From a virus: a stretch of DNA of 64,000 nucleotides. The position numbers were made by a program, and so were the translations under genes. The notes beneath the pieces were generated by a model, which did no database searches, had not been told where the DNA came from, and saw nothing but the letters and a program-made list of their open reading frames with translations. Within the stretch, counting starts at the first letter, position 1, and each line of letters starts with the position of its first letter. The stretch covers positions 77,984 to 141,983 of IMG/VR virus record IMGVR_UViG_3300028423_000861; one strand, written 5' to 3'. This document shows, in pieces, positions 2,047-27,586 of the stretch.

Positions 2047-2541
2047 TTAATCCTGTTCTTCTTCACTAAAGTAACGTTCGTGGTCGATGGGTCCTACTTT
2101 GATCATTTCTTCTGATCCATGATCGTCTGGAAAATGATCTTCTTCGAATCCATCTGTCTTCCAGAACTTGGTGTCAAACTTGTCAGCAAGACTTTCAAAC
2201 AGACCAAAGCTCGCCTCATTGACTTCTTCAATTGTTGCCTGCACATAATGAGAGCCAGTATCTTCAATCAGATGATACAGCATTTTTTGTGCAAGCTTTT
2301 CCTTGCGGTATTCTGGCTGCACAGCAATCTGCCATACAAAGAGTGTATCTGGTGCTTTCTTGAATTCGAATCCAGTGACAAAGGCAACAATTTCACCACC
2401 ATCTTCTACAACCATACACGTTTCCGAAAACAATTCAGCCATCATGAGATAGCTATAGCTTGAATTGAGATCAAGGCTGGTTTCTTTGGCGATGCGCCAC
2501 ATTTCACCAGCATCTTCAATAGTCGGATGTCTAAAATCCAT
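2047..2541 (-). CDS. ectA: L-2,4-diaminobutyrate acetyltransferase
   Basis: LDLNSSYSY, TLFVWQIAV, TI...N.AS..LF and HFPD.H motifs of EctA. Confidence 0.9.
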   Translation of the reverse strand: MDFRHPTIEDAGEMWRIAKETSLDLNSSYSYLMMAELFSETCMVVEDGGEIVAFVTGFEFKKAPDTLFVWQIAVQPEYRKEKLAQKMLYHLIEDTGSHYVQATIEEVNEASFGLFESLADKFDTKFWKTDGFEEDHFPDDHGSEEMIKVGPIDHERYFSEEEQD

Positions 2542-2837: not shown

Positions 2838-3093
2838 CTAGCTTGCGCATAGTTAATATTTGCAAAGCTTCGTCTGCTTGTTCATCAGGAGTCCATTCAT
2901 CACAAGCACTCATTGAACTCCAGGGATGACAGTTGTATTTGTCCCCAGGCTCTGGTGCTTTAGGACAATCATACGTTTGAAACTTTATACAGTGACGACA
3001 GATCCGTGTCGACAAAAACATGAGTTCATAATCGCGTTTATCATTTAGATCCATTGTATTAGTATATATGATCAATTTTGGAAGGTCAATCAT
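2782..3093 (-). CDS. hypothetical Cys-rich protein
   Basis: CxxC...CP motif similar to neighbour. Confidence 0.55.
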   Translation of the reverse strand: MIDLPKLIIYTNTMDLNDKRDYELMFLSTRICRHCIKFQTYDCPKAPEPGDKYNCHPWSSMSACDEWTPDEQADEALQILTMRKLDGTSDTREKTERGLDFGE

Positions 3094-3119
3094 AAAAAAA
3101 CCCTGCACGATTGGCAGGG
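3094..3119 (-). terminator. Rho-independent terminator ending the RNA operon
   Basis: CCCUGC/GCAGGG stem followed by U7. Confidence 0.85.
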
Positions 3120-3134
3120 CATTTGTGTTGAAAA

Positions 3135-3388
3135 TTAGCAGACCATATTTCGAATTGCCCTATCCGGCCAGCACAAGTTGCTATCTTGTGCCTGGGCATG
3201 GCGGGTAACAAGTGTCTTCTGACAACCTTTATTAGCTAGATAAAAGTTATGCCTGTCAGTGCTAACCATCCGGGACAATAATAAATTTTCGACGCATTGG
3301 CCCCCTCCCGCCATGTCGTCCGACACGCTCCAAATGATCCCCAGCCCTCAGGCGGTCACCAAGTGTGGCGCTGTCTTTCCTGTGTTGG
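3135..3388 (-). ncRNA. unknown structured RNA, 3' part of RNA operon
   Basis: CAUGGCGGG/CCCGCCAUG, GCACAAG/CUUGUGC, CUGACA/UGUCAG, AUUGUCC/GGGCAAU pairings. Confidence 0.6.
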
Positions 3389-4132
3389 TTATTTTCTTCC
3401 CCGAACCCAACCATTCGGTATATCACTATCTTTCTGTATTCGTTTATTTTTAACACCATCTGTTATCCAAACAGAGCCATACGAATAATTATTTGCACCA
3501 GTCATTGCGTTCGAAATTTTTTGCTTTGTTTCAGTAGACAATTTATTGCCTTTTCTTGATTCACTCATCTTTTGTCGGGTTGCAGTCGATTTCTTTTTAC
3601 CTACCAACGCTTCTGACAATTTCTTACGATGCTCTTGAGTAATAACCCTTGGCTTTGGCTTCACTGATTTGTTATAGTATGGAATTCCTTGGCATCTTTT
3701 TGACATATAATGTTGCTCAAATGCCGAAACACTTATCTCATTCTGACATTTTAAGCAACATATTCTGTTATGCTTTTTTCCTTTAAATCCTGATGGTCGT
3801 TGTTTAGCTTTTTTACTTATTTTATCTCGAACTTCTGTAGTAAACAAGATTCCTGTATTAATTGAATTATTGTAAAAGGTATTTCCTTCAAATATTTCTT
3901 TTTTGTGTTCAGTTAATAACTGTCTTTCTAAATTTATTGCTTCATAAGCATTGTCAAAGACTTGAATGATCTCACGTTTCCATTTAATATCAGGATCTTT
4001 CCAGTCTTTCCAAAATTCCTCTGAGCTACTTGATGAAATATATCCATCGTCAGTAGTTCCTTTGTGATACCCTATATATCGTTTGCCTAGTGTATTAGAC
4101 CATTCATACACAAAATATTCAACACGTTTCAT
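3389..4132 (-). mobile_element. free-standing GIY-YIG (Seg-like) homing endonuclease with NUMOD3 repeats
   Basis: FVY...YIGYH, YISSS; repeated S.ETKQKIS-type motifs. Confidence 0.85.
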
Positions 4133-4179
4133 AAATAAGCCTTTTAACTGTATACTTATTTATGTTAATAAGATGGAAA

Positions 4180-5045
4180 TAGTGAGATTACCTAAATTTC
4201 CGCGGTTGCCTTTGGACCGTACCGTAAACCTTGCGAGTCTACGTTAATCCGTTATCCACTAAGCGCCTTTCAGCTGACTTAGTATCAACCAGTGCTGCCT
4301 AGTTTAAAGTGGTGGCATTTCCACTATCGTTACACGCTACTCGTCCTTTGATCTTCCGCCTGCCTTGCGAGCAGTTCAGAGTCGCTAAACCCTTACGTCT
4401 TCTCTCCGAACAAACACTTCCGCCTTGCGAGCTTCCATGCACGACATTCACCGTAGTGTGTCGTATTAAGCACCTTTAACGTGCAACTGAGGCAGTCTTT
4501 GCGTTTTTGCTATAATGCATCTGCAGGATTTGAACCCACACATTCAGTTCCTAAAGACTGACGCTCTACCATTGAGCTAAGTTGCTAACCTACCAAGACG
4601 TGCTGCCTCTTGTTGCTTCGCATCCTTTTGGGAAACGAAATACAACACGCCTAAATGCCTTTCTCCTTGCGGGATACTAAACGTCTTTTCAAGTATCCAG
4701 CTACCTCACTAGTCGGTAACTCTCAACTTTAAAGATAACAAGTTGCCCTCCTGCGCGAACAGTCGGACTATTTGTTTACCCGTTAACATTCTGTCTTCGC
4801 TAGATTGGAGTGCATAGCTTTGGCTCCCACCAAATTGTAACCTCGCCGGTTGGCCCTGGTTACTATCCTTTCGGGCATTTGCTCTAGCTTAGGACTTACC
4901 TCGCTCTTCACAAGGGGTGCGCTACGGCTTATAGGAATACATCCGTCTGCCACCTAGTCCGGGCTTGCGTAAATGGACCATTGCTGGCGCAAGTGCGTAG
5001 GCTTCCTTGCTTTGGCAGTGTTACCACTGTTATCCTCCTGGACGT
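4180..5045 (-). ncRNA. GOLLD-like giant ornate RNA with embedded tRNA-like element
   Basis: ~860 nt without a credible ORF; several GCAA tetraloop hairpins on minus strand; tRNA-like insert; phage tRNA context; family assigned from memory, no covariance search. Confidence 0.7.
4517..4585 (-). tRNA. tRNA-like element inside the giant RNA (8-nt anticodon loop CUUUAGGA, no CCA)
   Basis: D arm AGCUCAAUGGUAGAGC, T loop GGUUCAAAUCC, UCAGU/ACUGA stem. Confidence 0.7.
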
Positions 5046-5059
5046 CACGCCGCCCATGT

Positions 5060-5395
5060 TCTTGTCTTAGATGATGAGTGTGCAGACATGTTGGGATTTA
5101 ACCAACGAGTCGATTGCCTGGACATTTGTGTAAGCAAAGGGAAAGGAAATTGACAATCAACACCATCACCTTTGTCTGCACACACGACATCTAAGACCAT
5201 TTTACAATAATCGGCTTCTATGTTTTTATATACACACCACTCGCATTTTGATATTATCTCAACGTTTTGACTGCATGGATCTTCCATCGCGGCGCAGGAA
5301 ATTTCCTTTCAGGCCCGACGCAGCGGATTGTCCCGCGATTCCATGACCAGGCAGTGTGCATGTAAAAACATAGTTGCCTATGTTGGTCTGCTAAA
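5060..5395 (-). ncRNA. unknown structured RNA, 5' part of RNA operon
   Basis: 25-bp near-perfect stem 5064-5088/5173-5197; 11-nt pairing GAAAGGAAAUU/AAUUUCCUUUC. Confidence 0.6.
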
Positions 5396-5426
5396 TTTTT
5401 AAAGAGCGTGTTGAGCTTTGCTCAAC
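5395..5426 (-). promoter_or_regulatory. rrn-like boxB hairpin plus boxA antitermination element
   Basis: GTTGAGCAAAGCTCAAC hairpin followed by CGCTCTTTAAAAATTT. Confidence 0.7.
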
Positions 5427-5436
5427 TTGTTTTACC

Positions 5437-5465
5437 AATATAGTGGTTTTATTTATGTTCGTCAA
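5437..5465 (-). promoter_or_regulatory. sigma70-type promoter
   Basis: TTGACG-17-TATATT with A-rich upstream tract. Confidence 0.8.
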
Positions 5466-5483
5466 CCACTTTTTTCAACTTTT

Positions 5484-5807
5484 TTAGTTAAGCTTGCGAT
5501 TTTTGCTTTCGCCAGTCAGCTTTTCGAAAAAGAGCCCGACAAGCTCTTCATCACTCATTTCTTCAACAACATCTTCATCAAGATGGCTGAGGTCTTCAAG
5601 CATTTCGTTCAACGCTTGGAGTTCACGATCAGACATGTCATCCGGATCCAGCTTGTAAGGTTCAGCCTTTTCAAGGAGCGAACCATCATTGGCCATTTGT
5701 TCAAGCTCTGCAATGAACTCGTCAAGTTCTTCCTGGGTGCCATCAAATTCATCAAGAGCACCCGGTGCAAACGTAATCTTTATTTTATCTTCTTTGTCAT
5801 CTGTCAT
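5484..5807 (-). CDS. acidic hypothetical phage protein
   Basis: ORF track; FAPGALDEFDGTQEELD. Confidence 0.75.
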   Translation of the reverse strand: MTDDKEDKIKITFAPGALDEFDGTQEELDEFIAELEQMANDGSLLEKAEPYKLDPDDMSDRELQALNEMLEDLSHLDEDVVEEMSDEELVGLFFEKLTGESKNRKLN

Positions 5808-5845: not shown

Positions 5846-6304
5846 TTATTGTGTTTTATCCAAGACGTTTTGATTATTTTGGATATTCCATGCAGGTTGG
5901 ATATAATTGATGAGGAAATTTTCTTCAACATCAATTAAACTCATCGTCTGAGACACGGCCCCAGAAAACAAATCAATATGTCTGACCTCACTGTTACAAC
6001 CATAAATCATCACTCGATCGTTTTCAAGGGTTTCGCGCAATTTATAGGCTTTGGTAATACCTGTAACGCTGTTGCCGCGCCACCCACCACGATGTTGTTT
6101 AAACCTCTGCTCAAGTCCTTTTCCGGCCTTGCCCACATAAATTACTTCATCATGGGCTACCCAAAGATAAACCTGTGGAATCTTTTGTTTGAATTTGTCT
6201 TCTTGGATAACAAAATCAACAAGATCTCGATCATTGATAAAGATTTCACCAGCATATTCAAAATATAATTTTTTTATTATTTCAGAAGCAGATTTTTGAT
6301 TCAT
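5846..6304 (-). CDS. GIY-YIG nuclease domain protein (endonuclease II-like)
   Basis: VYL...IYVGKA...L.QRF.QH. Confidence 0.7.
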   Translation of the reverse strand: MNQKSASEIIKKLYFEYAGEIFINDRDLVDFVIQEDKFKQKIPQVYLWVAHDEVIYVGKAGKGLEQRFKQHRGGWRGNSVTGITKAYKLRETLENDRVMIYGCNSEVRHIDLFSGAVSQTMSLIDVEENFLINYIQPAWNIQNNQNVLDKTQ

Positions 6305-14322: not shown

Positions 14323-14399
14323 TGGTCTCGGTGGTAGGATTCGAACCTACGGTCTCCTGGACCCAAACCAGGCGCTTTACCAGACTAAGCTACACCGAG
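14323..14399 (-). tRNA. tRNA-Pro(UGG)
   Basis: cloverleaf, CCA. Confidence 0.95.
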
Positions 14400-14583
14400 T
14401 TAATTATTTATAGATCTACTATAACACGTTTCAATCTAACAGTCGAGTCCCAGTGTCCTATTTCAAATAATTGCTCAATGTCTTTTTCAAAAGCCAAGAC
14501 GTCATCTTCATTATTGGGATTGAATTGTTCACTAAATTCATCTCCACTGTCTTCGAGGGTCACTTCAAATACATAGCTCTGTG

Positions 14584-15120
14584 TCATGTTTGTTGTTCTC
14601 CTTCAACTAATTCCATGATAGGAATGACACGTGGCCTCCCCAAATGATCAAAACCCATGACAACGCCTTGAACATTCTTGAGCATATGATCTGTAATGTA
14701 GCCTTCTTTTATAGACTCATAAGTGATTTCATGATTGCCTGGGTCGCGGCGTCGAATATAACGAACATGACGACCTGTAAGGCTGTTACCATTAACCTGT
14801 TCAATTTCACGAAACTTAGTGGCACTACTAGCCTTAACTTTGACGATCATTCCGGGCTTGAGATTTTCCTGGCACCACTTGGGAATAACTTGATCGCGAT
14901 ATTCCTTTCGTGACCGAGCGTTTTTTCGACGGGCGGCTGCTTGTGCCGCTTGAATCTCTTTTTGCTTTTGTTGCATCTGATTGTATTTTTCTTCAATCAA
15001 GGACACAACCGAAATCAATTGCATTTGTTGTGCTGTATCAAGACTGTCAAAATTCTTACAACGATCGACGATAACATCGAAAGCTTCGTCAAGAGACATT
15101 TCTGTATTTTGATCACTCAT
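14584..15120 (-). CDS. hypothetical protein
   Basis: ORF track. Confidence 0.7.
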   Translation of the reverse strand: MSDQNTEMSLDEAFDVIVDRCKNFDSLDTAQQMQLISVVSLIEEKYNQMQQKQKEIQAAQAAARRKNARSRKEYRDQVIPKWCQENLKPGMIVKVKASSATKFREIEQVNGNSLTGRHVRYIRRRDPGNHEITYESIKEGYITDHMLKNVQGVVMGFDHLGRPRVIPIMELVEGEQQT

Positions 15121-15197
15121 CTTTGTAAGGCCGTTGTTCAGTGTGCATACGACTTTGCATTACACGAAGAGCTCGATAATAGACATGACGAACTTCG

Positions 15198-15425
15198 TTA
15201 GAGTCCATTCTTTCGATCATGTCTATTAGATCTTCTCCGCTGGGTTTTGGGTTGGAGGTAGTTGCCATTTTTTACCCTTTCTGGGTCTGATAATGAGTCT
15301 AGAATAAACTTTTTTTCAGAGTCTGTCAATCGCGACCAAGCAGCGATTTCGTAAAGAGTTCTCCCACACCCAATACAGATGTCGTCTTGTATGCGACATA
15401 TGTTTTGGCATGGCGACTCAACCAC
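15198..15425 (-). CDS. DUF1289-like putative Fe-S protein
   Basis: SPC..IC....C.GCGRT..EI..W. Confidence 0.85.
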   Translation of the reverse strand: MVESPCQNICRIQDDICIGCGRTLYEIAAWSRLTDSEKKFILDSLSDPERVKNGNYLQPKTQRRRSNRHDRKNGL

Positions 15426-15643
15426 GCTGCCGACCTTTTAAGTTGCCCAGGTTCAATCGACAGACTCCTTGTTAGACAGCCTTGCAAGTTCACGTTCAAT
15501 TCGCTTTTTTTCTTGTATAAGAACAGCGAGCTTTATACGATAACTTGGCAAGTGCTTCTTTTCCTCAAATTGAGCTAACAGTTTTGACAATTTTTTCTCT
15601 ATTTGTTCCAAATATGTCATAGCTGTTACTCCTCTTTTGGCCT

Positions 15644-15841
15644 TTATTCGATTATGAAATTAAAGGACTCTAGTTCTTCTCGTAGAACAAAATCATCAGG
15701 CAACGCTCTTGGTGTTCCTTCAAGAACGTCGTCTACTATTTTTTTACTCTCTTTTAAGCCAATCCCGGAATGTTTGTTGATTGCTTGAGTAGCATCAATT
15801 TTTCTAGCGCCGGGTCGCCATCCACTGATAATCATTACCAT
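15644..15841 (-). CDS. ribosomal L7/L12 C-terminal-like small protein
   Basis: KI......SGIGLKESKKIVD. Confidence 0.55.
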   Translation of the reverse strand: MVMIISGWRPGARKIDATQAINKHSGIGLKESKKIVDDVLEGTPRALPDDFVLREELESFNFIIE

Positions 15842-15887
15842 CTCCTCAAGACAAAAATACTGGCTTCATGCCAGTATTTAACGTATT

Positions 15888-15964
15888 TGGTACGGGTGGT
15901 CGGATTCGAACCGACACTGAACAGGGTTTGAATCTGGTGCCTCTGCCAATTGGGCTACACCCGC
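15888..15964 (-). tRNA. tRNA-Leu(CAA), short variable arm
   Basis: cloverleaf, CCA. Confidence 0.85.
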
Positions 15965-15970
15965 ATATTT

Positions 15971-16061
15971 TGGTGGTAGACCTGGGTAACGATCCCAGCC
16001 GTGCACCCTAATCTGGGGCTACAAGTTTATAAATCTCGCCTGCACACCTGTGCTATCTACC
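15971..16061 (-). tRNA. atypical tRNA-Ile(UAU) with long variable arm
   Basis: acceptor GGUAGAU/GUCUACC, loop UUUAUAA, non-canonical T loop. Confidence 0.65.
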
Positions 16062-16081
16062 AAATAAAAAAATTTTTAATA

Positions 16082-16169
16082 TGGCACCCCCTGGAGGAAT
16101 TGAACCCCTTGGCTTCCATCCCACTATTTTACGCCGAGAGTTTAGAAGACTCTTGTGGGGTCAGGAGGC
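16082..16169 (-). tRNA. atypical tRNA-Arg(UCU), D arm absent, long variable region
   Basis: AGAGU-CUUCUAA-ACUCU; 8-bp acceptor; CCA. Confidence 0.7.
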
Positions 16170-16844
16170 AGAAATTACTTTTTTTGCCCATCTATACCAA
16201 TGACTCACAGCACCAGGATAACCCATTTCTTTTAGTGCTGCGTTTAAGCTACCTTTCTTTTTATAGAACTCTAATAGCTCTTGCTCTCTGCCATAGTATG
16301 AGGCTGTTTTTGTTCTTCTATCTTTACATTTTTTACTACATATACGCTCGTTCTTTTGAGGTCGAAAACTACCCCCACACTCTAAACATTTTACCTTTTC
16401 TTTAGGAACGTATCTGCCTTTAATCCATCCAATTTTAATATATACTTCTAATTCAGTTTTTGCAATCTTTTTATTTTGTAGAGTTATTGGATCGTATATC
16501 CAACAAGACCCGTATTGTGAATTTCTTACACCAAAAGAGTTGATCTTTGCCGCATTCTGATGCTGACGCTTGATCCATCCATAGCGTTTATTGCTTCGAA
16601 TTGCCTTACTTCCAGACACTGTCATCATATTAAGCGCAAAGATTAACTTGGCATTATCAGGATACATTTTAACTAACAGTTGGTGTGCTACATAATGTTC
16701 TTCTGGTGTTAGATTTACAATATTATTTTTACTATTATCCCCTCCCAAACAACGTGGAATAATGTGATGTTTTTCAAAATATCCTTCAAGTATCCGATTT
16801 TTAGCCTTTGACATAAGGCTGTTATAGTGAAAATAATAATCCAT
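16161..16844 (-). mobile_element. HNH homing endonuclease
   Basis: EKHHIIPRCLGG.N...N...LT.EEH..AH.LL. Confidence 0.9.
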
Positions 16845-16871
16845 GCTTATATTTATAGAGGCATGTATTAA

Positions 16872-16961
16872 TGGCGGAGGGCCCGAGAATCGAACTCGAT
16901 GCGCTTTCACGCACAATCGGTTTAGCAAACCGTTCCAGGCACCAGCCTGATTGTACCCTCC
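16872..16961 (-). tRNA. tRNA-Ser(GCU)
   Basis: cloverleaf, CCA. Confidence 0.9.
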
Positions 16962-16979
16962 AGGTATTCATATTTATTT

Positions 16980-17069
16980 TGGCGGATAGGGTGGGAGTCG
17001 AACCCACACGACGCTTTAAGTCCTAACTGATTTCAAATCAGCGGCCACCTCCAATTGGCTTGCCTATCC
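16980..17069 (-). tRNA. tRNA-Ser(UGA)
   Basis: cloverleaf, CCA. Confidence 0.9.
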
Positions 17070-17079
17070 ATATGTTGTG

Positions 17080-17160
17080 CGGAAGGTGGAGTAATCGAAA
17101 CCCGAACCTTTCGGTCCCCCTGGAGTTCGAATCCAGTTTGCCACCTTGACGGCACCTTCC
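17080..17160 (-). tRNA. tRNA-Ser(CGA), 8/4 fold, CCA not encoded
   Basis: GGAAGGUG/CACCUUCC acceptor, 4-bp T stem. Confidence 0.8.
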
Positions 17161-17501
17161 CCATATTCAAAATGCTGGTAGTCATACATGCATTCTCTTA
17201 GCTTGCCCGCCCTATGTCTTTGTATTTGACTTTGGCAAGTGCCAGCAATTTTATGGTCTCGGGATTGAAAATTGAACATCTTGAATGTTCTTGATGTCTT
17301 GGATTATCTGGTTACGCTCCATAGGTGTAGTTGTGGCAAAGAAACCTATTACCACACCAGCAACAACAATATAAGGAATCATTCCAATCATTCCAATCTC
17401 CTTACTGTATGTTGGCAATATACACTACTGCCAACATTGTTGTCAACGGAAACGTCGATGCAAATAATTTTTTCGTCGAATCTGTATACATCAATACCTC
17501 C

Positions 17502-18125
17502 TTATATGTGCATTTTTGAACGTATATTACTCACCCATTGACTTACGATCCACTCATCTGGGTCATCTTCATACCAGTCATCTTCGTCAATGTAACTTTC
17601 TTCTCGATGTTTGAATTTCTCATACATCTTATAATATTCTTCATTGGGCTTGAGCTCACGAAGATCATTTGCAGTGCAGCGAAGCTTGAACATTGTAAAT
17701 TCTTCATCACTATTAAATTCAGTAATGTAGAAGGTTGTGCTACATGCGCCGCCCACCGTTTTAATGCCTACATGTTTTAATCCATCACATGCCTCTCGTA
17801 GCTGTTTTCCATAAATTGTGATAACACGGATAACAACTTCTGGTTTATCAAGCCGTTGCTTGATTTCAGGCGTAAGTTCATTCAAGTGTGCAACATTATC
17901 ATCATCAATTACGAGATGACAATTCTTGATCTTGATGCTGCCTTTTGTGTGTGAATTTTTCGGGGTTTCCTTTGTAGACCATGGAACACTACATTCAACG
18001 TGTTCGACATAATAGCTTTCGCCTTTGGCCTTGATAACCCACATAGGAATCGTGGGGTCTTCCAAATGTTTTTTATTGAAGTGGAAAACTGCTTCTTTAC
18101 ATGCTAATTCAAAGTTCTAAGACAT
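17502..18125 (-). CDS. hypothetical phage protein with in-frame TAG at codon 3
   Basis: AAGGAG SD then ATG TCT TAG AAC..., in frame with ORF 17502-18065. Confidence 0.6.
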
Positions 18126-18144
18126 AATTAACTCCTTGATTGTC

Positions 18145-18549
18145 TTATGGAATATACTGCATATCGACTCCATTGTCAATATCATTATCGTTAGATTCAA
18201 TTTCGAATCCTAACTTTTGATACCAGTTGACAAGTTGCTCAGTGCTCATCATGTCATCACGATATGCTTTTGCTGTGAGTTTAAGAGTGACACCATGTTC
18301 TTTTGCGAGCTTTTGTAGCAACCTCATTGCTGCTGATGCATGTCCTTTTCGTGGATCAAGTGAAGTAATATCACTTATTCTTACGTTGCCGCCTTGGCGA
18401 CTTGCTTCAACGGCAGCGCCTCCAATAATACGAACACGATCATTGAAAGGGTGCTCTTCACTCATATCCAAGAAATCTTCCAAAAAGTCCTCAGCTGGAC
18501 CTTTGTTAACACTTCCTAGTTTGACACGGGCTACTTCTTTAACTCTCAT
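18145..18549 (-). CDS. GNAT-fold acetyltransferase
   Basis: RKGHAS..M..L and L.NWYQKLGF. Confidence 0.75.
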   Translation of the reverse strand: MRVKEVARVKLGSVNKGPAEDFLEDFLDMSEEHPFNDRVRIIGGAAVEASRQGGNVRISDITSLDPRKGHASAAMRLLQKLAKEHGVTLKLTAKAYRDDMMSTEQLVNWYQKLGFEIESNDNDIDNGVDMQYIP

Positions 18550-18562
18550 AAAAATATTTATC

Positions 18563-18641
18563 TGGTAGCCCCAGCGGGGTTCGAACCCGCACCCTCTGGC
18601 TTGAGAGGCCAGCGTCCAGATGCCACTTAGACCGTGGGGCC
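18563..18641 (-). tRNA. tRNA-Glu(CUC)
   Basis: cloverleaf, CCA. Confidence 0.9.
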
Positions 18642-18749
18642 ATTCGACATGAAAATTTTTTCATGTCTTATACAGGACTGTTTGTCCATCTGATGCACTG
18701 TTGGAGTCACCGGAGTGAACACGCTCGCTCGTTGCTCTCGTGGGGAAAT

Positions 18750-18828
18750 TGGTCGGCCAAGCCAGGACGCCACTTCCTGCATCTCACCCCCTTTCACCGG
18801 GGCTACTCGCGATTTTGAGTTATTGGCC
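18750..18828 (-). ncRNA. degenerate tRNA-like RNA ending in CCA
   Basis: four arms pair but T and anticodon loops are non-canonical. Confidence 0.55.
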
Positions 18829-18868
18829 TCTCTAATGCCTACGTATGGTAGCTACGTGGCAAGCTTTT

Positions 18869-18954
18869 TGGTAGGGCAAACTGGTATCCACCCAGTATCT
18901 ACGGGCCCAGCGCCCGGTGTCCTGATTTTCTAAAGTTTATTAGACGATCGCCCC
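18869..18954 (-). ncRNA. degenerate tRNA-like RNA ending in CCA
   Basis: GGGGCGA/UUGCCCU-A-CCA; T loop GUGGAUA. Confidence 0.55.
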
Positions 18955-18960
18955 GAAATT

Positions 18961-19037
18961 TGGTGCCCAGGAGAGGACTCGAACCTCCAACACCTACGCC
19001 CTCAACGTAGTGCGTCTGCCAATTGCGCCACCTGGGC
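18961..19037 (-). tRNA. tRNA-Leu(GAG)
   Basis: cloverleaf, CCA. Confidence 0.9.
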
Positions 19038-19333
19038 ATAAACACTTAACTTCATCCCTGGATTCATAGTCCAGGCCGGCTCCAAGACCGCATTCTGATT
19101 TAGATACTTCGTTATTGTGTTTGTTTACATTCAATCTTTATTTCAAGAACATCTGGGGAAATATACCTATATTCCTGAAATGGAAAAATTTGATTTAAAG
19201 TAGTTCTTCCACTCAAATAGCAACCAGTTAGGGATCTAAAAGTATAGTTATCAACTTCAATACGTTGAGCCCTTTGTTCTCCAGATTGCATTGTAAGAAT
19301 GAGGATGATTGCTAATTTGAACATGTATATCCT

Positions 19334-19408
19334 TGGTGGGCAAGGAGGGATTCGAACCCCCAACCTAATGCGTGTAAAGCACCCGCGCTACCGTTGCGCC
19401 ACTCGCCC
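19334..19408 (-). tRNA. tRNA-Val(UAC)
   Basis: cloverleaf, CCA. Confidence 0.95.
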
Positions 19409-19587
19409 TTTTAATAATCTTCATCAATATCAAAAATATGAACTAAAGGAATCTTTTTAACTGGATAGTCTTTGCCACGAAAAATACAATAAAGAGGCCC
19501 TTTCGTGTATGTTGACACTACGTTGTCAAATTCAAGTGCTTGGCTGTTTTCATATAACCTTACTTTGACTTTCATTGTGTATCCTTT

Positions 19588-19662
19588 TGGTGGGTCCTAC
19601 TAGGATCGAACTAGTGACCTCCACGATGTCAACGTGATGCTCTACCTCTGAGCTAAGGACCC
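19588..19662 (-). tRNA. tRNA-Val(GAC)
   Basis: cloverleaf, CCA. Confidence 0.95.
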
Positions 19663-19669
19663 AAAAACA

Positions 19670-19745
19670 TGGAGGCGTAGGAAGGACTCGAACCTTCATA
19701 AAACCGGGTTGCAGCCGGTGACGTCGCCGTTCCGCCCACTACGCC
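19670..19745 (-). tRNA. tRNA-Cys(GCA)
   Basis: cloverleaf, U73, CCA. Confidence 0.9.
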
Positions 19746-19755
19746 AATAATTTTA

Positions 19756-19830
19756 TGGAGCGGGCGAGGAGGGTCGAACTCCCGACCTTCTGGATGGCAA
19801 CCAGACGCTCTACCACTGAGCTACACCCGC
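19756..19830 (-). tRNA. tRNA-Gly(GCC)
   Basis: cloverleaf, CCA. Confidence 0.95.
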
Positions 19831-19862
19831 ATTATAAATATTTATATAGGAGTTTTTATTTA

Positions 19863-20666
19863 ATGTTCAAATATATTACTATAATTTTGCTATTTCTGTC
19901 AACCAGTGTTTATGCTGGTGACCCAAGTATTTTACGTGTTGATGATCACCGCGGACCTTGGATGGATACAATTGACGAAGATGCAAGAGACTATGCATAT
20001 CAACGTGTCAATAATCATACATATCGTGGACCAACTGCACTTCGTTTTGAATTGCGCGATGGTGATTGCTACACTGCATATCCAGAATCGCCTTCAAGTG
20101 GCTGGGATGATTGCACCCGTGACCGTGAAAGATCTGAAGTGCGCGAGCGTTGGTCTGCACCACTAGATACTAGCATGTGGTATCAAATCAGCATGTTTAT
20201 TCCTGAAGATTATGAACCAATGTATCCCAAGCAAATCTTTTGGCAATGGCACAATGGTGACTGGGGACCAAATCTATATTTCCATTTAAACGAAAATAAA
20301 TTTCATATCGACATCCTAACAAGACGTCATCAAACAACTACACAATATACCTTTGGGCGTGAGATTTTAAAATTGGGCTATTGGCATGAAATCACAGTAA
20401 ATGCTGTATGGTCTGCAGATCCTGAACGTGGACGTCTGTTGGTTTTCGTAGACAACCAACTAATAGTTGAACATTTTGGACCAACGCTTGATCTAGAAAC
20501 ATATTTTTCAGGAACAGGACCACATGTAAAATATGGAATATACCGCAGTCACTTATACCGTTATAATGAGCCAGGCCCACATCCTACACATGTATTATTC
20601 TTTGATGAGTATCGTCGTGGATTTGATTTTGAATCAGTAGATGTTGGAAATTATCCAGGAGATTAA
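19863..20666 (+). CDS. secreted polysaccharide lyase-like protein
   Basis: signal peptide; RFELR.GD, RERSE, QWH, K.GIYR motifs; TATAAATA and AGGAG upstream. Confidence 0.75.
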   Translation: MFKYITIILLFLSTSVYAGDPSILRVDDHRGPWMDTIDEDARDYAYQRVNNHTYRGPTALRFELRDGDCYTAYPESPSSGWDDCTRDRERSEVRERWSAPLDTSMWYQISMFIPEDYEPMYPKQIFWQWHNGDWGPNLYFHLNENKFHIDILTRRHQTTTQYTFGREILKLGYWHEITVNAVWSADPERGRLLVFVDNQLIVEHFGPTLDLETYFSGTGPHVKYGIYRSHLYRYNEPGPHPTHVLFFDEYRRGFDFESVDVGNYPGD

Positions 20667-21103
20667 TTTTTTCTTGAATCATAGAATGCTGATCGTGTTT
20701 CCCACAACCAACCACCATAACAGTCGTGGTAAACAAATGCCTTGCTGTCTTCAATTACTAATCTTGGGTCTTCAATGTTTACAGCTAGCCTATTGAATTC
20801 ATGATAACCTTCATCACGAATTTCAGGTTTATCTTCAAAACGGGCAAGGACAGGAACACGTTCTACTTCCGTGGCTGGATCTAAAATGAACCATTCAATT
20901 CCTTTATAAACACAATTTCTTTTCTTGTGAAAAGATCCACTAAGATGAAGCCAACCTGAAGTTCTTTCATCATGAATTCTAATATCATTCTGTTCAATTT
21001 TTGCTATCTCAGTGACCGGGAATACCTTGCCATCATAACGATAAGCAAGCGCGGTTAGAATTAATAGCAACCATGGCAGGACAAAAAACAAAAAATATCT
21101 CAT
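20663..21103 (-). CDS. membrane-anchored hypothetical protein, paralog of 21692-22213
   Basis: shared F.K.RNC and VYH.C.G.WLW.T.S.FY. Confidence 0.7.
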   Translation of the reverse strand: MRYFLFFVLPWLLLILTALAYRYDGKVFPVTEIAKIEQNDIRIHDERTSGWLHLSGSFHKKRNCVYKGIEWFILDPATEVERVPVLARFEDKPEIRDEGYHEFNRLAVNIEDPRLVIEDSKAFVYHDCYGGWLWETRSAFYDSRKN

Positions 21104-21133
21104 ATGCTTATTTATATAACTGTCAAATGATCA

Positions 21134-21221
21134 TGGCGGATAGCGGGTGAATCGAACACCACGGATTTCTCCGCGCACCGCTTTCCAGGCGGCCGTCTGC
21201 ACCAGCTAGACATCACTATCC
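21134..21221 (-). tRNA. tRNA-Ser(GGA), 8/4 fold
   Basis: 8-bp acceptor, 4-bp T stem, CCA. Confidence 0.85.
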
Positions 21222-21695
21222 ACAACTTTTATACCCGTGACTTTTTACAAGGTCTTTTCCTGAAAGTATGGCCCATTGATCTTCCTGTGTATCTCGCCAT
21301 ACTTTTTCAAACCATTCAGCAAGTGAGTCACTGTAATGACTCTTCAGGGTATATACTGCAAACAGCTTGGTAACATAAAGTTCTGGCACTTTTGAATCTT
21401 TTGCTTTTCTCGGTGCGTGAAAATAAAAATCAACACCAGGATCCACACACTCTGCAACCTTCAAATACATCGTGCAGGCACTATAACATGTCTGATCTAA
21501 AATAATGGTTTCGTTGTTTTCCTGCATTTTTGATATATTTGCACGGTGTGAATAAATTTCACCACCAAACCAAGAAAATTTTGCCGGATCAACCATGATA
21601 TCGGATCCCGAATAAATCATAAACATCGTTGTAAGAAAGGTTATTGCTGGCGAAGCAGCCAGAGCCAATAACACTATTCTTAAAATTTTAATCAC
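21216..21695 (-). CDS. hypothetical protein related to 1075-1803
   Basis: CYSAC and FH motifs. Confidence 0.6.
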   Translation of the reverse strand: MIKILRIVLLALAASPAITFLTTMFMIYSGSDIMVDPAKFSWFGGEIYSHRANISKMQENNETIILDQTCYSACTMYLKVAECVDPGVDFYFHAPRKAKDSKVPELYVTKLFAVYTLKSHYSDSLAEWFEKVWRDTQEDQWAILSGKDLVKSHGYKSCG

Positions 21696-22213
21696 GGGTG
21701 TGGATTCCTGGTTTTCTTTAACCTCGTTTTTTGTATCTCACTGCTATAAAACAGGCTCTTCGTTTTCCACAGCCATTCCCCATGGCATTTGTGATACACA
21801 TATGCGTAACTTTCAGTTACAATTAAATCTGGACTTAACCTTACTCTTAAGTAACTAGATTTTTGGTGGCCTGGTTCACGTACAATTGGCATTTTTTCTT
21901 TTAAAGATGGATCTGGACCAAGTAAAACCGGAACATTTACTGAATCAAGTTTTGAAAAAGATCTGCGCGTTCCATAATACCATCTTATTTCTTCTAATGA
22001 ACAATTCCTGAGCTTATCAAACTCACCTACAACTCTTGTCCAATCGTCAGTTCGATCTAGTCGCATCGACGTTATTTCTGGAGGTGTGACTACAGGATTT
22101 AATCTACCATCAAGCAATGCATATAGCATGGTTCCGATAGTTAATGACCAGACCAAAATGCCAAGATAGATAGCATTTTTGAATCTGTTCAATTTTTTTT
22201 CATTCCATGCCAT
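21692..22213 (-). CDS. membrane-anchored hypothetical protein
   Basis: paralog of 20663-21103; AGGAG SD. Confidence 0.7.
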   Translation of the reverse strand: MAWNEKKLNRFKNAIYLGILVWSLTIGTMLYALLDGRLNPVVTPPEITSMRLDRTDDWTRVVGEFDKLRNCSLEEIRWYYGTRRSFSKLDSVNVPVLLGPDPSLKEKMPIVREPGHQKSSYLRVRLSPDLIVTESYAYVYHKCHGEWLWKTKSLFYSSEIQKTRLKKTRNPHP

Positions 22214-22321
22214 GACAATCTCCTTAATGAATATTTATTCATACTGGAGATTTTTTTATGTAGCATGTTAATAAAATTGTTACCCCTGATCGTATTCAAA
22301 CCGACACTGGAAAAGTAACTT

Positions 22322-22404
22322 TGGTGGGCACGGCGGGACTCGAACCCGCAAGCCGAAGCAGAAGATTTTAAGTCTCCCGTGTATACCAATTCCACCACGT
22401 GCCC
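22322..22404 (-). tRNA. tRNA-Leu(UAA)
   Basis: cloverleaf, CCA. Confidence 0.95.
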
Positions 22405-22852
22405 AAATTTCTAAATTATGTTATTTCGTCAAAGTCTACGCTTCATAAAATATCCCATACTGGTTATGCCAGCAAGATATGCCCTAAACAGTGCTTCTTC
22501 GGCATCGGTTTTTAATAGTTCAGCAAGTTCGTCTTGATTCTCGCGGAACCAGGCCTTCCAAGTTGTGTCGTCGTCAGTCATGTGTCGGATATACCCTTGT
22601 TATTTTCCAGTCACTGAATTCGTGATATAAGTTGTGCTTAGATTTACACTGCTTCAATACTACTAGTATAGACTCAAAATCTTCTCCGGACAATATTGCC
22701 GGCACTTCGCGGCAATCCTGATAATGCAACATTTGAAAATGTCTTCCATCATCAGTATGAAAATTGATCACTGTTCGATCAATATTAAAATTAACATCTT
22801 CCAATGTCATGCCAATTAAATCAGAAACATGTGTCATTTTTTCACTTTAATT

Positions 22853-22939
22853 TGGTGCTAGCTGAAGGATTCGAACCTTCGACGGGCAATCGCCAACGGC
22901 TTACAAGACCGTTCCCTTCGTCCACTCGGGCAAGCTAGC
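22853..22939 (-). tRNA. tRNA-Thr(UGU) with long variable arm
   Basis: ACGGU-CUUGUAA-GCCGU; class II-type body. Confidence 0.85.
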
Positions 22940-22949
22940 ATATATATTC

Positions 22950-23040
22950 AAACAGTATTTACGACGGGACTCGAACCCGCACCTCCGGATTTCCAAAACG
23001 CTGCAATGCTGTTCCGGTGAACTACCACTTATTCTACGCG
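22950..23040 (-). ncRNA. tRNA-like RNA with 23-nt expanded anticodon loop, no CCA
   Basis: D arm, CCGGA/UCCGG stem, canonical T arm. Confidence 0.55.
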
Positions 23041-23278
23041 CCTACTGCTCGGTCCGCTCCTACGTCAAGTTCTTATAGCATCGTCTCCCTGTAGTGTCAA
23101 CACTTCTGATCAGTTTTCACTTCGCTTTCGCATTGTGCCTGTCTGGCCCTTCCCCAGCTCACGGTTTTTATAGCTTTGCAACGTGTTACACAATGTTTCC
23201 GCTCCGTTTCCACATCACCTCCGTGATGTCTTACAGTTTGGCTCAACTATCGCCCCGTGACGCGGTGGCTTGCGATTC

Positions 23279-23365
23279 TGGTGCTAACTGAAGGATTTGA
23301 ACCTTCGATGGGCTTGTGCCAACGGCTTACGAAACCGTTCCCTTCGTCCGCTCGGGCAAGCTAGC
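23279..23365 (-). tRNA. tRNA-Thr(CGU) with long variable arm, paralog of 22853
   Basis: near-identical body, different wobble base. Confidence 0.85.
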
Positions 23366-23371
23366 AATTTT

Positions 23372-23447
23372 TGGTGGAACCCCGCGGAATCGAACCGCAG
23401 TCTCCTGGGCTTCAACCAGGCGTGAGCACCAGCCTCACCAGAGTTCC
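23372..23447 (-). tRNA. tRNA-Phe(GAA)
   Basis: cloverleaf, CCA. Confidence 0.9.
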
Positions 23448-23818
23448 AATTGTTCAAAATCTAGGTTCTCAACTATCAAGAACCTTTTATCTGTATGTTG
23501 ATTGATAACAGCATTCATTTTCTGTCTGTCATTACCCCCTGTCGCTCTACCAGTGATCTACAGAAGCGTTATTCTTACTCGCCTGGATCCTGGTCTCCTG
23601 GAAAATCCCAAGAAGGCAAATCTCCGATTTCTTTTAGTGTAACCGTTGCTTCATGAAGATCAATTACTTCAATTCCTGACTCATTATCAAAAATATCCGG
23701 ACGATCTCGTCTTGCTGAACGTTCTGCATGTGCAGGATTTTCTGCAACAATTACAAACTGTTGATCATAATAATTTTCGGTTTGAACTAAAAATATTTTC
23801 ATCTTACACCTAAAATCT

Positions 23819-23894
23819 TGGTGGCCTATCATGGACTCGAACCATGTAACCCTTCCTTATGAGAGAAGTGCGTGAACCCTTTCGCCTATAGGCC
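23819..23894 (-). tRNA. tRNA(CAU), Met or Ile2
   Basis: cloverleaf, CCA. Confidence 0.85.
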
Positions 23895-23895
23895 G

Positions 23896-24040
23896 TAAAT
23901 CTTTACTATCAAAAATACCTTTTCGTATCTTGTTTATTTCTTCTTCAGTAATAATGCAGATATTGTCCTTTACAGTAATCCATTTAGCAATATCTCGTTC
24001 TTGTATATAACCTTTTACTTCAACATACATTCCATTTGTT
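23896..24040 (-). pseudogene. remnant of PD-(D/E)XK-type endonuclease
   Basis: YVEVKGY...RD..KW fragment lacking an N-terminus. Confidence 0.5.
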
Positions 24041-24070
24041 ATAGAATGACATATTTTGTCATAATGTCAA

Positions 24071-24144
24071 TGGTGGAGCACCGGGGAATCGAACCCCGTG
24101 ACGCCGATCTTGCAAGGATCAGCCGTGACCCATCAACGTGCCCC
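24071..24144 (-). tRNA. tRNA-Ala(UGC), reduced D arm
   Basis: G3-U70, CCA. Confidence 0.85.
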
Positions 24145-24359
24145 AAAAATCTTGTTAGGCAGTTTAACAACAACAATTCTGAATGCCTAGGTTGGGCGTG
24201 TTAAGAGCTCGTCCCCTTCTCACATACAGTATTTAACGTTTCGCTTTCAACGTTTGGGGATGCATGTTCACCCGCTGCCTATTTCTGCCCGCCTGGGATT
24301 CGAACCCATATTCATTTTTTCTAAGGCGCAGACCACGCTACCGGCCAGCAGATTAACTT

Positions 24360-24479
24360 TGGTGGGCTGTCCAGGATTCGAACCCGTTTTCTAAAGACTC
24401 ACGCTATTCCACTCATTGACTACGGGGTGTGTAGTATGTTGGACGTGTAGCAGCATAACCAATACCACAAAAACAGCCC
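24360..24479 (-). ncRNA. 120-nt tRNA-like RNA with intact acceptor and T loop, replaced anticodon domain
   Basis: GGGCUGU/ACAGCCC-A-CCA; GGUUCGAAUCC. Confidence 0.65.
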
Positions 24480-24593
24480 GAAAAAATTTGATACTATCGC
24501 TTGCCTTACCGGTGTATCAAACCGGCGCCAGTTTAAGGTACGGCGCTGCATACCACGTGCCTTTTCTCACGCTATCGTGGAGTTACCTATCAG

Positions 24594-25007
24594 TTAGTTG
24601 TATAGTTTATGAACCATTTCTAACAATTCTTGGTTATCATCTATACATCCGGTATAAATTTCATCAACCTCACAGTCTGTGCAATCAAGACTGTCGATAA
24701 TAAACTGTGCTGGAATTTTGCGATCATTACAAAACTCTTCGAATTCCGCAGTAGCAAGTTCGCCACCACTATCACTCACAACAACCAATTTTTTATTATC
24801 AACATCAAAAACGTTTGTTATGGTTCCTGATTCACAGTATTCATCTACATCTGGTTCCATGCAGATAGATTCAAATTGTTTGACCCATTCATTGAGTTGT
24901 TCATCATTCATGACAGCAACAACACTATCGCAACATTCAAGCAGCGATTCGGCTGTGCTATAATCATCAAAAACAAAATATTTAGAATAGCTTGGTTGGA
25001 TTTTCAT
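24594..25007 (-). CDS. acidic hypothetical protein
   Basis: ORF track. Confidence 0.65.
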   Translation of the reverse strand: MKIQPSYSKYFVFDDYSTAESLLECCDSVVAVMNDEQLNEWVKQFESICMEPDVDEYCESGTITNVFDVDNKKLVVVSDSGGELATAEFEEFCNDRKIPAQFIIDSLDCTDCEVDEIYTGCIDDNQELLEMVHKLYN

Positions 25008-25037
25008 TCTATTACCATGTTAAGTTAAAATTAATTT

Positions 25038-25105
25038 TGGCAGGGGGTAAAGGAGTCGAACCTTTTATGTTCTGATTTGGACCCAGCCCATTTGACAACC
25101 CCCCT
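25038..25105 (-). tRNA. D-armless tRNA-Trp(CCA)
   Basis: acceptor, anticodon and T arms present; D arm replaced by short linker. Confidence 0.65.
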
Positions 25106-25111
25106 ATATTC

Positions 25112-25185
25112 TGGCGACCCATGGGAGAATCGAACTCCCGACCTCGGATAGACAATCCGGTATGATACCACTTCATCAATGGGCC
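25112..25185 (-). tRNA. tRNA-Asp(GUC)
   Basis: cloverleaf, CCA. Confidence 0.9.
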
Positions 25186-25191
25186 ATAATC

Positions 25192-25267
25192 TGGTCCTGC
25201 GCTGAGGAATCGAACCTCATCCTCCCGGGCCACAACCGAGCGTGACAACCTTTTTCACCTACGCAGG
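25192..25267 (-). tRNA. tRNA-His(GUG), no G-1, A73
   Basis: CCUGCGU/GCGCAGG-A-CCA. Confidence 0.9.
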
Positions 25268-25336
25268 ATATTCGTATAACCTGAAGACATCTGGATATTT
25301 TTTTATCCTCTCACTCGTCATTTAATAAAACATGCT

Positions 25337-25423
25337 TCTTTGAAAGGTGGACTCCATCATCAAGATAATTTACAATATCTTACCGCTACTGAAAACAGAG
25401 CCAAAGGTGATAAATTAATTTAG
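25337..25423 (+). pseudogene. C-terminal remnant of HNH endonuclease
   Basis: KGGLHHQDNLQYLTATENRAKGDK*. Confidence 0.65.
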
Positions 25424-25425
25424 CT

Positions 25426-25501
25426 TGGCGGTTTTATCTTGACTTGAACAAGAAACTCTGGTTTAGGAGACCAGTGTGATATCCAGTTTCACCATAAAAC
25501 C
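25426..25501 (-). tRNA. tRNA-Arg(CCU)
   Basis: cloverleaf, CCA. Confidence 0.9.
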
Positions 25502-25676
25502 AATCCAGTCGGACAGGACATTTATTCTCGTGGTTCTTGTGGTGCTGTCCACTACCACCATCGGCTCCTGATACTTTTTACGGAGGTTGTGTCCCTCGGA
25601 CAAATTTAACCACGGCGATCTTTTAAAGTTGAGTATTTTATACTACAAATCTCTAAACGTAGATCGCACAACGTAT

Positions 25677-25751
25677 TGGCGCCCCTAGTAGGATTCGAAC
25701 CCACAACACACGGTTTCGAAGACCGTTGCTCTTCCGTTGAGCTATAGAGGC
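25677..25751 (-). tRNA. tRNA-Arg(UCG)
   Basis: cloverleaf, CCA. Confidence 0.95.
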
Positions 25752-25756
25752 ATATA

Positions 25757-25781
25757 TGGACCTCCGGGTTGGGTTCGAACC
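25757..25781 (-). pseudogene. 3' fragment of split tRNA (probably Gln)
   Basis: GGUUCGAACCCAAC-CCGGAGG-U-CCA; pairs with 26529-26535. Confidence 0.75.
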
Positions 25782-25782
25782 T

Positions 25783-26493
25783 TTAAAAGTTGGATGCGCG
25801 ACTAGGACTCGAACCTAGATTAGCTGGCTCAGAACCAGTTTTCCTACCATTAGAAGACCGCGCAGCATTTGTTTTGCAATTATCAAAATGCCATCTTTTC
25901 ATGTTATTCGGAGACCCTTCTTTCTCGCAATGCGGACATGTTATCTTAGGTTTAGGCTTTCCTTTTGGCCAGCCACCTTCATTGGAATTAAGGGCATAAT
26001 ATTCTTTCATCACTTTAGAATGATTTTGTTTATATTTTTCGCTCTTCTCTCTTCCTTTAAGAGCTGCAGAACGCTTCTTTCTTTCTACATCAGGCATAGG
26101 GCCGATTAACTTACCTTTATTCCAAGGAGTGCGACTAGATGTCGCTATACCAATTTTTTCTTTTGCCTCTGGTGAATGTTGTCTTCCGAGAAACGCCGTT
26201 TTTGCTTTAACCGGATCCCAACCGCCATTGCCACCAACACAAAGGTTGTAATTGGTTTCTTGCAGCACAAATTCTTCAGTTACTAATTCAGCTTCTTTAG
26301 CATTCATGTCATCTTCATTATCAAATATGTGTAGTATTTCCTTTTGAAAATTCTCTATACCATATTTGTTAATTGCGCGTTGAATCAATAATCCTGATCC
26401 TAAATATCCGTCATCTAAATTTGAAGTTTTATGCTTACCAATATAAATCATATTGGTAATTTGGTTAGTAATTTTATAAACAGTGTGAAACAT
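25783..26493 (-). mobile_element. GIY-YIG (Seg-like) homing endonuclease
   Basis: VYKITN..T.MIYIGKH.T...DDGYLGSG, YNL..GG.GG. Confidence 0.9.
25791..25864 (-). tRNA. tRNA-Gln(CUG), nested in 3' end of endonuclease ORF
   Basis: cloverleaf, U73, CCA. Confidence 0.9.
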
Positions 26494-26504
26494 ATTCTTA
26501 TTTA

Positions 26505-26535
26505 TCAGACGTCCAACCAATTAGACCGCCGGAGG
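26505..26535 (-). pseudogene. 5' fragment of split tRNA (probably Gln)
   Basis: CCUCCGG plus D arm GGUCUAAUUGGUUGGAC, similar to tRNA-Gln(UUG) at 29042. Confidence 0.75.
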
Positions 26536-26542
26536 ATTATTC

Positions 26543-26617: not shown

Positions 26618-26619
26618 AA

Positions 26620-27568: not shown

Positions 27569-27586
27569 ACCGTTGTTTCATGATAT

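Follow-up and report, generated by a model that had tools for sequence, protein, structure and literature searches.

We propose that the giant non-coding RNA GOLLD of a large, uncultured phage is probably made from a boxA-led stable-RNA unit that draws on host antitermination of the ribosomal RNA (rRNA) type, and that the ends of the precursor may in addition be clamped together by a helix. The unit lies at 5465-3094 of the stretch analyzed here (the window), which forms the final 64 kb of an IMG/VR viral contig of 141,983 nt (IMGVR_UViG_3300028423_000861), estimated to be 60% complete; the host is probably a gamma- or beta-proteobacterium. All features of the unit are on the minus strand and follow one another in the order A-tract, promoter, hairpin, boxA, leader domains A and B, GOLLD, spacer and open reading frame (ORF), tail, trailer arm, and terminator. 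An earlier reading of the same letters (the original prediction) had described the locus as organized like an rRNA operon. Our findings bear out the first part of that description, since the start is laid out as in rrn operons and carries what we regard as a true rrn-type boxA leader; the end-to-end stem that completed the picture is plausible, though unproven.

Results

The promoter, TTGACG-17-TATATT (5437-5465, with 10/12 consensus matches), and the hairpin behind it, GTTGAGC-AAA-GCTCAAC (5410-5426), are as first described. The hairpin, with its 7-bp stem and AAA loop, occupies the position of boxB and ends 2 nt before boxA. The boxA with its flank, CGCTCTTTAAAAATTTAG (5391-5408, core GCTCTTTAAAAA at 5407-5396), is present as a single copy in the window. 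The proposed resemblance to the Escherichia coli rrn leader holds in direct comparison: CGCTCTTTAAAAATTTAGCAGAC (5408-5386) and TGCTCTTTAACAATTTATCAGAC of the rrnB leader are identical at 20/23 positions, the reference being read from NC_000913 rrnB and from the edges of enteric proviruses. When 185,579 species genomes were scanned, the 18-mer CGCTCTTTAAAAATTTAG gave 30 matches, at least five of which are plain gamma-/beta-proteobacterial rrn leaders (L224, L240, L231, L235, and L221). In such leaders the promoter is followed by a hairpin, the 18-mer, and then a boxC-like word, and two of them have their 16S start 141-165 nt past the 18-mer. A 22-mer that takes in the stem arm, meant to find an exact host rrn leader, matched no genome. 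E. coli K-12 has seven copies of the 13-mer boxA core GCTCTTTAAAAAT, at positions fitting its seven rrn operons, against a single occurrence of a control word; the rrnB copy, the one inspected, is the boxA of the 16S-23S spacer. The geometry agrees as well, the distance from -35 to boxA being 58 nt in the phage and 58-60 nt in four of the rrn leaders that share its boxA; E. coli rrnB P2 and a further rrn leader have 66-67 nt. Directly upstream of -35, the A-tract AAAAAAGTG (5467-5475) resembles the proximal subsite of an UP element, and a similar arrangement, AAAAAAGT-N2-TTGACA, is found in 17/41 GOLLD leader promoters.

The same module recurs at other GOLLD loci. For this comparison we took 180 GOLLD loci from IMG/VR, 116 of them non-redundant and with enough upstream sequence, and defined strict boxA as G[CT]TCTTT[AG]A. 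This pattern is present in the immediate leader of 56/116 loci and within 3 kb upstream in 67/116; among the first 98 loci 44 carried it, against an expectation of 0.018 per window searched. Conservation of boxA at related phage loci, a check named in the original prediction, is seen in those 56 immediate leaders; the remaining loci are without strict boxA there. Across the boxA-led loci the -35 element stands 55-61 nt from boxA. A hairpin of at least 5 bp that ends no more than 5 nt from boxA was found in 47/63 unique GOLLD leaders, compared with 32% of control windows, and stems of at least 6 bp in 34/63 compared with 15% (p = 8e-13); the stems at this boxB position have 32 different sequences. 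The boxA word also differs by locus: GTTCTTTGAAA is the commonest in the set, GCTCTTTAAAAA is that of the window, and words of the G[CT]TCTTTGA type belong to the sigma-70-type relatives closest to the window GOLLD. Where tRNA or transfer-messenger RNA (tmRNA) genes stand ahead of GOLLD, boxA heads the entire stable-RNA operon. For instance, contig G004 has boxA, three tRNAs, GOLLD, and then many tRNAs; in Phaeobacter phage MD18 (L207) GCTCTTTGACAA is followed by six tRNAs, GOLLD, and a tmRNA; in Xanthomonas phage XacN1 (L209) GTTCTTTAACAA precedes a tmRNA, GOLLD, and tRNAs; and in Xanthomonas phage X1 (L210) GTTCTTTAAAAA precedes a tRNA array and GOLLD. Overall, identity, geometry, recurrence, and operon logic give good support to the view that the phage leader is a true rrn-type boxA module.

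We also observed that GOLLD is unannotated in 5/5 cultured-phage records examined (MD18, XacN1, X1, Caulobacter Magneto, and Sinorhizobium Phosso). The operons of cultured phages that are headed by an rrn-type boxA (MD18, XacN1, and X1) mix tRNAs and GOLLD, with permuted tmRNA among their genes.

The cargo, first described as GOLLD-like, is a genuine GOLLD. Its 3' domain (4179-4653) matches RF02032 over the full length of the model (positions 1-416) with 181.9 bits and E = 7e-51, above the gathering score of 150 bits, and the 5' domain in front of it (4654-5058) shows 60-66% identity over ~400 nt to 82 GOLLD loci. The Rfam search that had been proposed as a check thus recovered GOLLD; a sensitive scan of 2900-5700 gave this RNA and a tRNA-like element only, and a group I intron or other known RNA around the endonuclease gene was rejected on that result. 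The tRNA-like insert, in the GOLLD linker (4515-4586; Rfam tRNA, 50.1 bits), lacks CCA, has two mismatches in the acceptor stem, and carries 8 nt in its anticodon loop, CUUUAGGA; ARAGORN reports it as 'tRNA-???' with anticodon ttag. The window copy resembles GOLLD (RF02032) in its 3' domain, which exceeds the Rfam threshold, in its homologous 5' domain and tRNA-like linker insert, and in its large-phage setting rich in tRNAs and with tmRNA. It differs in forming its own boxA-led, terminated unit with an endonuclease gene downstream, and in having two additional hairpin domains in the leader, 351 nt separating boxA from GOLLD. The intrinsic terminator expected after the trailer arm is confirmed at 3094-3120, with a 7-bp GC-rich stem (3120-3100) followed by U7; it is the sole minus-strand terminator within the unit, and the promoter of the next genes lies just past it, at 3089-3061. 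Given its own promoter, only one terminator, and then a fresh promoter for the next genes, the GOLLD unit can be regarded as a discrete transcription unit. In GenBank phages, matches were confined to GOLLD itself, and searches for relatives through the flanking proteins gave three loci without GOLLD, or no match.

A second element of the original prediction was an 11-nt complement between the leader and the sequence just before the terminator. This pairing is exact, UUAGCAGACCA (5394-5384) being fully complementary to UGGUCUGCUAA (3145-3135), and allowing one mismatch lengthens it to 15 nt (5398-5384 x 3145-3131). We refer to the leader arm (5384-5398, perfect core 5394-5384) as S1 and to the trailer arm (3131-3145), which ends 10 nt before the terminator stem, as S1'. 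In a partition-function fold of the full 2,343-nt transcript, the S1/S1' helix is predicted to form with a probability of about 1 (0.62-1.0 for its 11 pairs), and in the minimum free energy (MFE) structure it is the only strong long-range helix predicted for the transcript. Counted from the first boxA base, S1 starts 13 nt on; the corresponding offset for the 16S helix of E. coli rrnB, whose leader arm is 18 nt and perfect, is 14 nt. When the 99-nt leader was set against the 100 nt that lead up to the terminator, 5000 dinucleotide shuffles gave a chance P of 0.0028 for 11 perfect pairs and of 0.0002 for 15 with one mismatch. None of the closest leaders (L178, L130, L180, and L153) has the GACC that makes up the GC core of S1; these 4 nt are a lineage-specific insertion, and the arm is therefore derived rather than inherited. 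Two further candidates were discarded. At L106, the one locus with a 13-nt complement between leader and downstream sequence, the boxA is spurious and falls inside a coding region. In the window, a split outer RNA with two nested helices fails, as its second pairing, 5353-5341 x 3201-3189, is given probability 0 in the ensemble and has a leader arm that pairs locally.

The 5' RNA is strongly structured, as had been proposed: 5436-5050 folds far better than its shuffles (z = -5.15). Domain A (5210-5381) is closed by a helix of ~20 bp (5381-5354 x 5237-5210), and its 116-nt interior contains the palindrome AGGAAAUUUCCU. Domain B (5064-5197) is a hairpin of the UUAGAUG...CAUCUAA stem-clamp type, with 25-nt arms (5197-5173 and 5088-5064) that are 88% paired. 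The closest leaders (L178, L130, L180/L181, and L153) have UUUAG or UUUGG after boxA and then a small hairpin with a U-run, the 3' arm of which can alternatively pair with a remote repeat of the 5' arm, closing a domain of 100-180 nt just before GOLLD. Domain A of the window follows the same design, and its closing-helix architecture is common to L178, L130, and L181, with differing sequences. The small hairpin of the window, AACAUAG-GCAA-CUAUGUU (5364-5384), has a 7-bp AU-rich stem, a GCAA loop, and a U5 run, an arrangement also seen in L178 and L130; its 3' arm can close domain A instead. It resembles a weak terminator, and may act as a boxA-gated attenuator or as a transient folding helix.

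In related contigs (L047, L108, L037, L041, and others), stems of the domain B type are found on either side of GOLLD and between tRNAs. A long stem type, ACUUAUUAGAUGA...UUCUUCUAAUAAGU, to which domain B of the window belongs, encloses very different inserts of 60-120 nt in L037, L041, L047, L107, L147, L155, L195, L204, and L205; some of these inserts contain motifs like a tRNA T-arm. For the interiors of domains A and B no homologue was found in the 180 viral and 2 metagenome GOLLD loci. The two interiors are complementary to each other at 11/11 positions between 5310-5300 and 5151-5141 and at 10/11 between 5353-5343 and 5125-5115, and since the order of the segments fits, a kissing contact between the domains is suggested; the 12-nt palindrome AGGAAAUUUCCU could, for its part, pair two copies of the RNA. 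A pairing of the leader motif UUAUCC with the conserved GUGGAUAA of the GOLLD 3' domain was rejected, as it has only 8 bp, is limited to one subclade, and does not extend into the flanks. A multi-RNA assembly of the kind envisaged in the original prediction is not supported beyond GOLLD and two leader hairpin domains.

The enclosed homing endonuclease gene is also confirmed. The ORF at 3389-4132 encodes a free-standing protein of 247 aa that matches NUMOD3 (E = 3e-12) and the homing endonucleases of PHROG 314 (E = 1.8e-17); the GIY-YIG Pfam match is below threshold, and PDB gave no useful sequence match. A 46-nt AT-rich spacer (4178-4133) precedes it. The GC content of ORF and spacer (0.33 and 0.22) is far below that of the flanking RNA (0.47-0.51), and both therefore seem to have been inserted later, between GOLLD and the tail. 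In bacteriophage T4, segB is a free-standing homing endonuclease gene located in a tRNA cluster. The arrangement in the window is similar to that of segB-type GIY-YIG/NUMOD endonucleases, in that an AT-rich ORF is inserted among, and co-transcribed with, stable-RNA genes; it differs in that the window ORF shows only NUMOD3 and PHROG 314 matches. Upstream of the unit, a small ORF (5846-6304, minus strand) gives weak GIY-YIG matches (E about 2e-4 to 9e-4) that narrowly miss the Pfam cut-offs, and endonuclease-type genes may therefore flank the GOLLD region on both sides.

Behind the endonuclease gene lies a non-coding tail of 243 nt (3146-3388), whose GC content (0.51) resembles that of the RNA parts and not that of the gene (0.33). 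An independently structured 3' RNA, which had been placed here, is not supported, as 3392-3125 folds no better than its shuffles (MFE z = -0.59). The small ORFs of the tail have no PHROG match, and no homologue of it was found in the 180 viral and 2 metagenome loci. The 12 nt between trailer arm and terminator (3125-3136) are complementary at 11/12 positions to codons 3-6 of the endonuclease gene (4114-4125); this may reflect translational control, or chance.

The rest of the window contains ~40 tRNA genes and one permuted tmRNA. The tRNA arrays (14326-32152, minus strand) have no boxA leader like that of the GOLLD unit, and no other enrichment of boxA was found in this phage. A segment at 16876-16961 (minus strand) matches the tRNA-Sec model with 53.4 bits against a gathering score of 47, the phage-encoded two-piece tmRNA is at 40156-40505 (minus strand; alpha_tmRNA 105.8 bits, tmRNA_permuted 98.4 bits), and an ORF for a GNAT acetyltransferase is at 2047-2541 (minus strand).

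Discussion

A large untranslated RNA headed by the antitermination signal of rRNA operons suggests a simple course of events. Host RNA polymerase would start at the strong sigma-70 promoter and, within ~30 nt, transcribe a small hairpin and a host-type rrn boxA. The boxA would then load NusB-NusE(S10), with NusA, NusG, and SuhB, onto the polymerase, as it does at rRNA operons, where the resulting complex is established to give fast, Rho-resistant transcription (PMC10250234). We infer that Nus loading and Rho resistance would hold here too, the polymerase being made fast and Rho-resistant across ~1.3 kb of untranslated, folded RNA, that is, domains A and B and then GOLLD. The endonuclease gene behind GOLLD would ride the same anti-terminated transcript, to be closed by the GC-rich tail and the intrinsic terminator, and the S1/S1' helix would join the sequence after boxA to that before the terminator, clamping the precursor without being an efficient RNase III site. 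Antitermination would thus explain both why a giant untranslated RNA bears boxA and how an endonuclease is expressed 1.3 kb into an untranslated transcript. Neither a NusB nor an RNase III gene was found on the 60%-complete contig, and host factors would consequently be needed.

The resemblance to a bacterial rrn operon leader (P2, boxB hairpin, boxA, boxC), which is served by an antitermination complex of NusA/B/E/G, SuhB, and S4, extends from the sigma-70 promoter through the hairpin, with boxA 1-2 nt later, to the identical boxA, the equal spacing from -35, and the long untranslated structured RNA downstream. The phage unit, on the other hand, lacks rRNA and boxC, has a single promoter found in place of tandem P1/P2, and carries as cargo GOLLD RNA and a protein-coding hitchhiker. 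The likeness to the 16S leader-trailer helix, an RNase III substrate (Young & Steitz; PMC10250234), is also partial: the leader arm comes right after boxA, the trailer arm lies past the enclosed RNA, and the whole structured cargo is enclosed; yet S1/S1' is shorter and also encloses a protein gene, and it was not found in the other GOLLD operons of the set.

Several observations weigh against our reading, most of them against its clamp. S1/S1' has 11-15 bp, far short of the 25-40 bp of rrn leader-trailer helices (PMC10250234) and of the length of about two turns or more that RNase III requires. Among the 180 viral and 2 metagenome GOLLD loci, none shares the tail in which covariation of the two arms would show. 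In 61 other boxA-led GOLLD leaders, the longest complement within 3 kb downstream averages 8.28 nt, compared with 8.13-8.17 nt in controls, and leader/trailer duplex energies do not differ between matched and mismatched GOLLD loci; the conservation of the pairing at related loci, which the original prediction had made a test of its claim, is thus absent from these 61 leaders. An 11-mer complement somewhere within 3 kb is, moreover, not rare, and only its position is striking. As for the leader, the 60 nt after the phage boxA contain no boxC-like UGUGUGGG, a word present in the bacterial rrn leaders fetched. Finally, about half of the GOLLD loci are without strict boxA and several have a promoter abutting GOLLD, so that a boxA leader is not obligatory for this RNA.

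The clamp observations lend themselves to a plainer account, in which a boxA-led GOLLD gene is followed by an inserted endonuclease gene with its 3' untranslated region and the two arms match by chance. We think this a serious possibility, somewhat short of an even chance. It agrees with the lack of conservation, with the 11/2835 other 110-nt windows that attain 11 perfect pairs with the leader in a real-genome control, and with the 10-13 nt that shuffled or reversed controls reach within 3 kb at other loci. It does not readily explain why the match should fall right after boxA and 10 nt before the terminator, why two stretches of 100 nt should share 15 nt with one mismatch (P = 0.0002), or why a derived insertion of 4 nt should form the GC core of the leader arm. 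On balance, whether the end-to-end helix is functional seems to us about evenly poised; if it is, its most likely role is that of a clamp on the precursor ends, for folding or for protection from exonucleases. We grade RNase III cleavage of S1/S1' lower than its being functional; the 20-25-bp stems of domains A and B are better candidates for that enzyme.

A bolder view is that the phage uses the ribosome-biogenesis route of the host from end to end. With ~2.2 kb of RNA looping out, the boxA complex would keep the leader arm near the polymerase, at the RNA exit channel, and would pass it to the trailer just before termination; the leader/trailer helix would then be a processing stem for RNase III, and the antitermination complex would chaperone the closure of a multi-RNA particle. 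A looping model anchored on boxA is published for rrn (PMC10250234), and both the offset of S1 from boxA (13 nt, vs 14 nt in E. coli rrnB) and its standing as the sole strong long-range pair of the predicted fold would suit it. The shortness of the helix, its absence as a conserved feature from the 61 other leaders, the tail without detectable structure, and the zero probability of the nested pairing weigh against this full mimicry, which, like the route from end to end, we consider less likely than not.

Whatever the fate of the helix, it might be asked whether the boxA-like word is a Nus site at all. It could instead be part of the GOLLD or promoter architecture, or a lambda-type nut site served by an N-like protein of the phage, an option favored by the many GOLLD loci without boxA and the missing boxC. 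This is improbable in our view. The word lies outside the GOLLD homology and also heads tRNA and tmRNA genes ahead of GOLLD; it varies by locus, and in the window it is exactly that of gamma-/beta-proteobacterial rrn leaders. Lambda nut sites, in which boxA precedes boxB and N protein acts, likewise combine boxA with a hairpin close to a phage promoter, but in the window the order is reversed to hairpin first, as in rrn, and the boxA is the rrn version; no N-like protein was identified, though without a dedicated search for one. Host-type boxA sequences outside rrn are not without precedent, and work by Stringer in 2020 and by Baniulyte in 2017 reportedly places them at CRISPR arrays and at suhB. 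In phages, a host-type boxA works behind the early promoters of T7, according to the passage of PMC3709561 that cites Savalia 2010. These cases resemble the GOLLD unit in that host RNA polymerase is carried through an untranslated or termination-prone region with no phage N protein. They differ in that boxA there precedes mRNAs or CRISPR arrays and not a giant structured RNA, and in that the phage GOLLD leader keeps the full rrn-like geometry of promoter, hairpin, and boxA. Still less credible is a mobile DNA cassette that carries GOLLD and the endonuclease gene and has S1 and S1' as its terminal inverted repeats: inverted repeats do flank a 2.25-kb segment containing that gene, but a transposase is lacking, homing endonucleases of the GIY-YIG/NUMOD3 kind do not rely on such termini, promoter and boxA would fall outside the element, and the contig has no second copy, leaving it very improbable.

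We thus return to a boxA-led unit for GOLLD with a possible end clamp. Its parts (GOLLD, boxA antitermination, leader-trailer helices, and free-standing homing endonucleases) are already known. Their combination, in which GOLLD is driven by a promoter, hairpin, and boxA of rrn type and is joined here by an endonuclease hitchhiker and perhaps an end clamp, was not found in the literature searched, which did not include the original 2009 GOLLD paper. GOLLD is among the largest non-coding RNAs of bacteria and phages and forms an RNA-only cage; env-38 GOLLD assembles as a homo-14-mer nanocage (PMC12286853). The frequent transcription of GOLLD from an rrn module gives a concrete handle on its production and would tie it to the ribosome-production program of the host. 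It predicts that GOLLD transcription is Nus-dependent, Rho-resistant, and fast, and possibly that folding is chaperoned. Given that the boxA of the window is the spacer boxA of E. coli, the unit should be testable directly in that species even though the phage is uncultured. Should the end-to-end route prove true, the subunit of the GOLLD nanocage would fold and close during its transcription, as pre-16S rRNA does, and phage stable-RNA operons, with their tRNAs, tmRNA, and GOLLD, would depend on host Nus factors, a point of host dependency and a possible target of defence.

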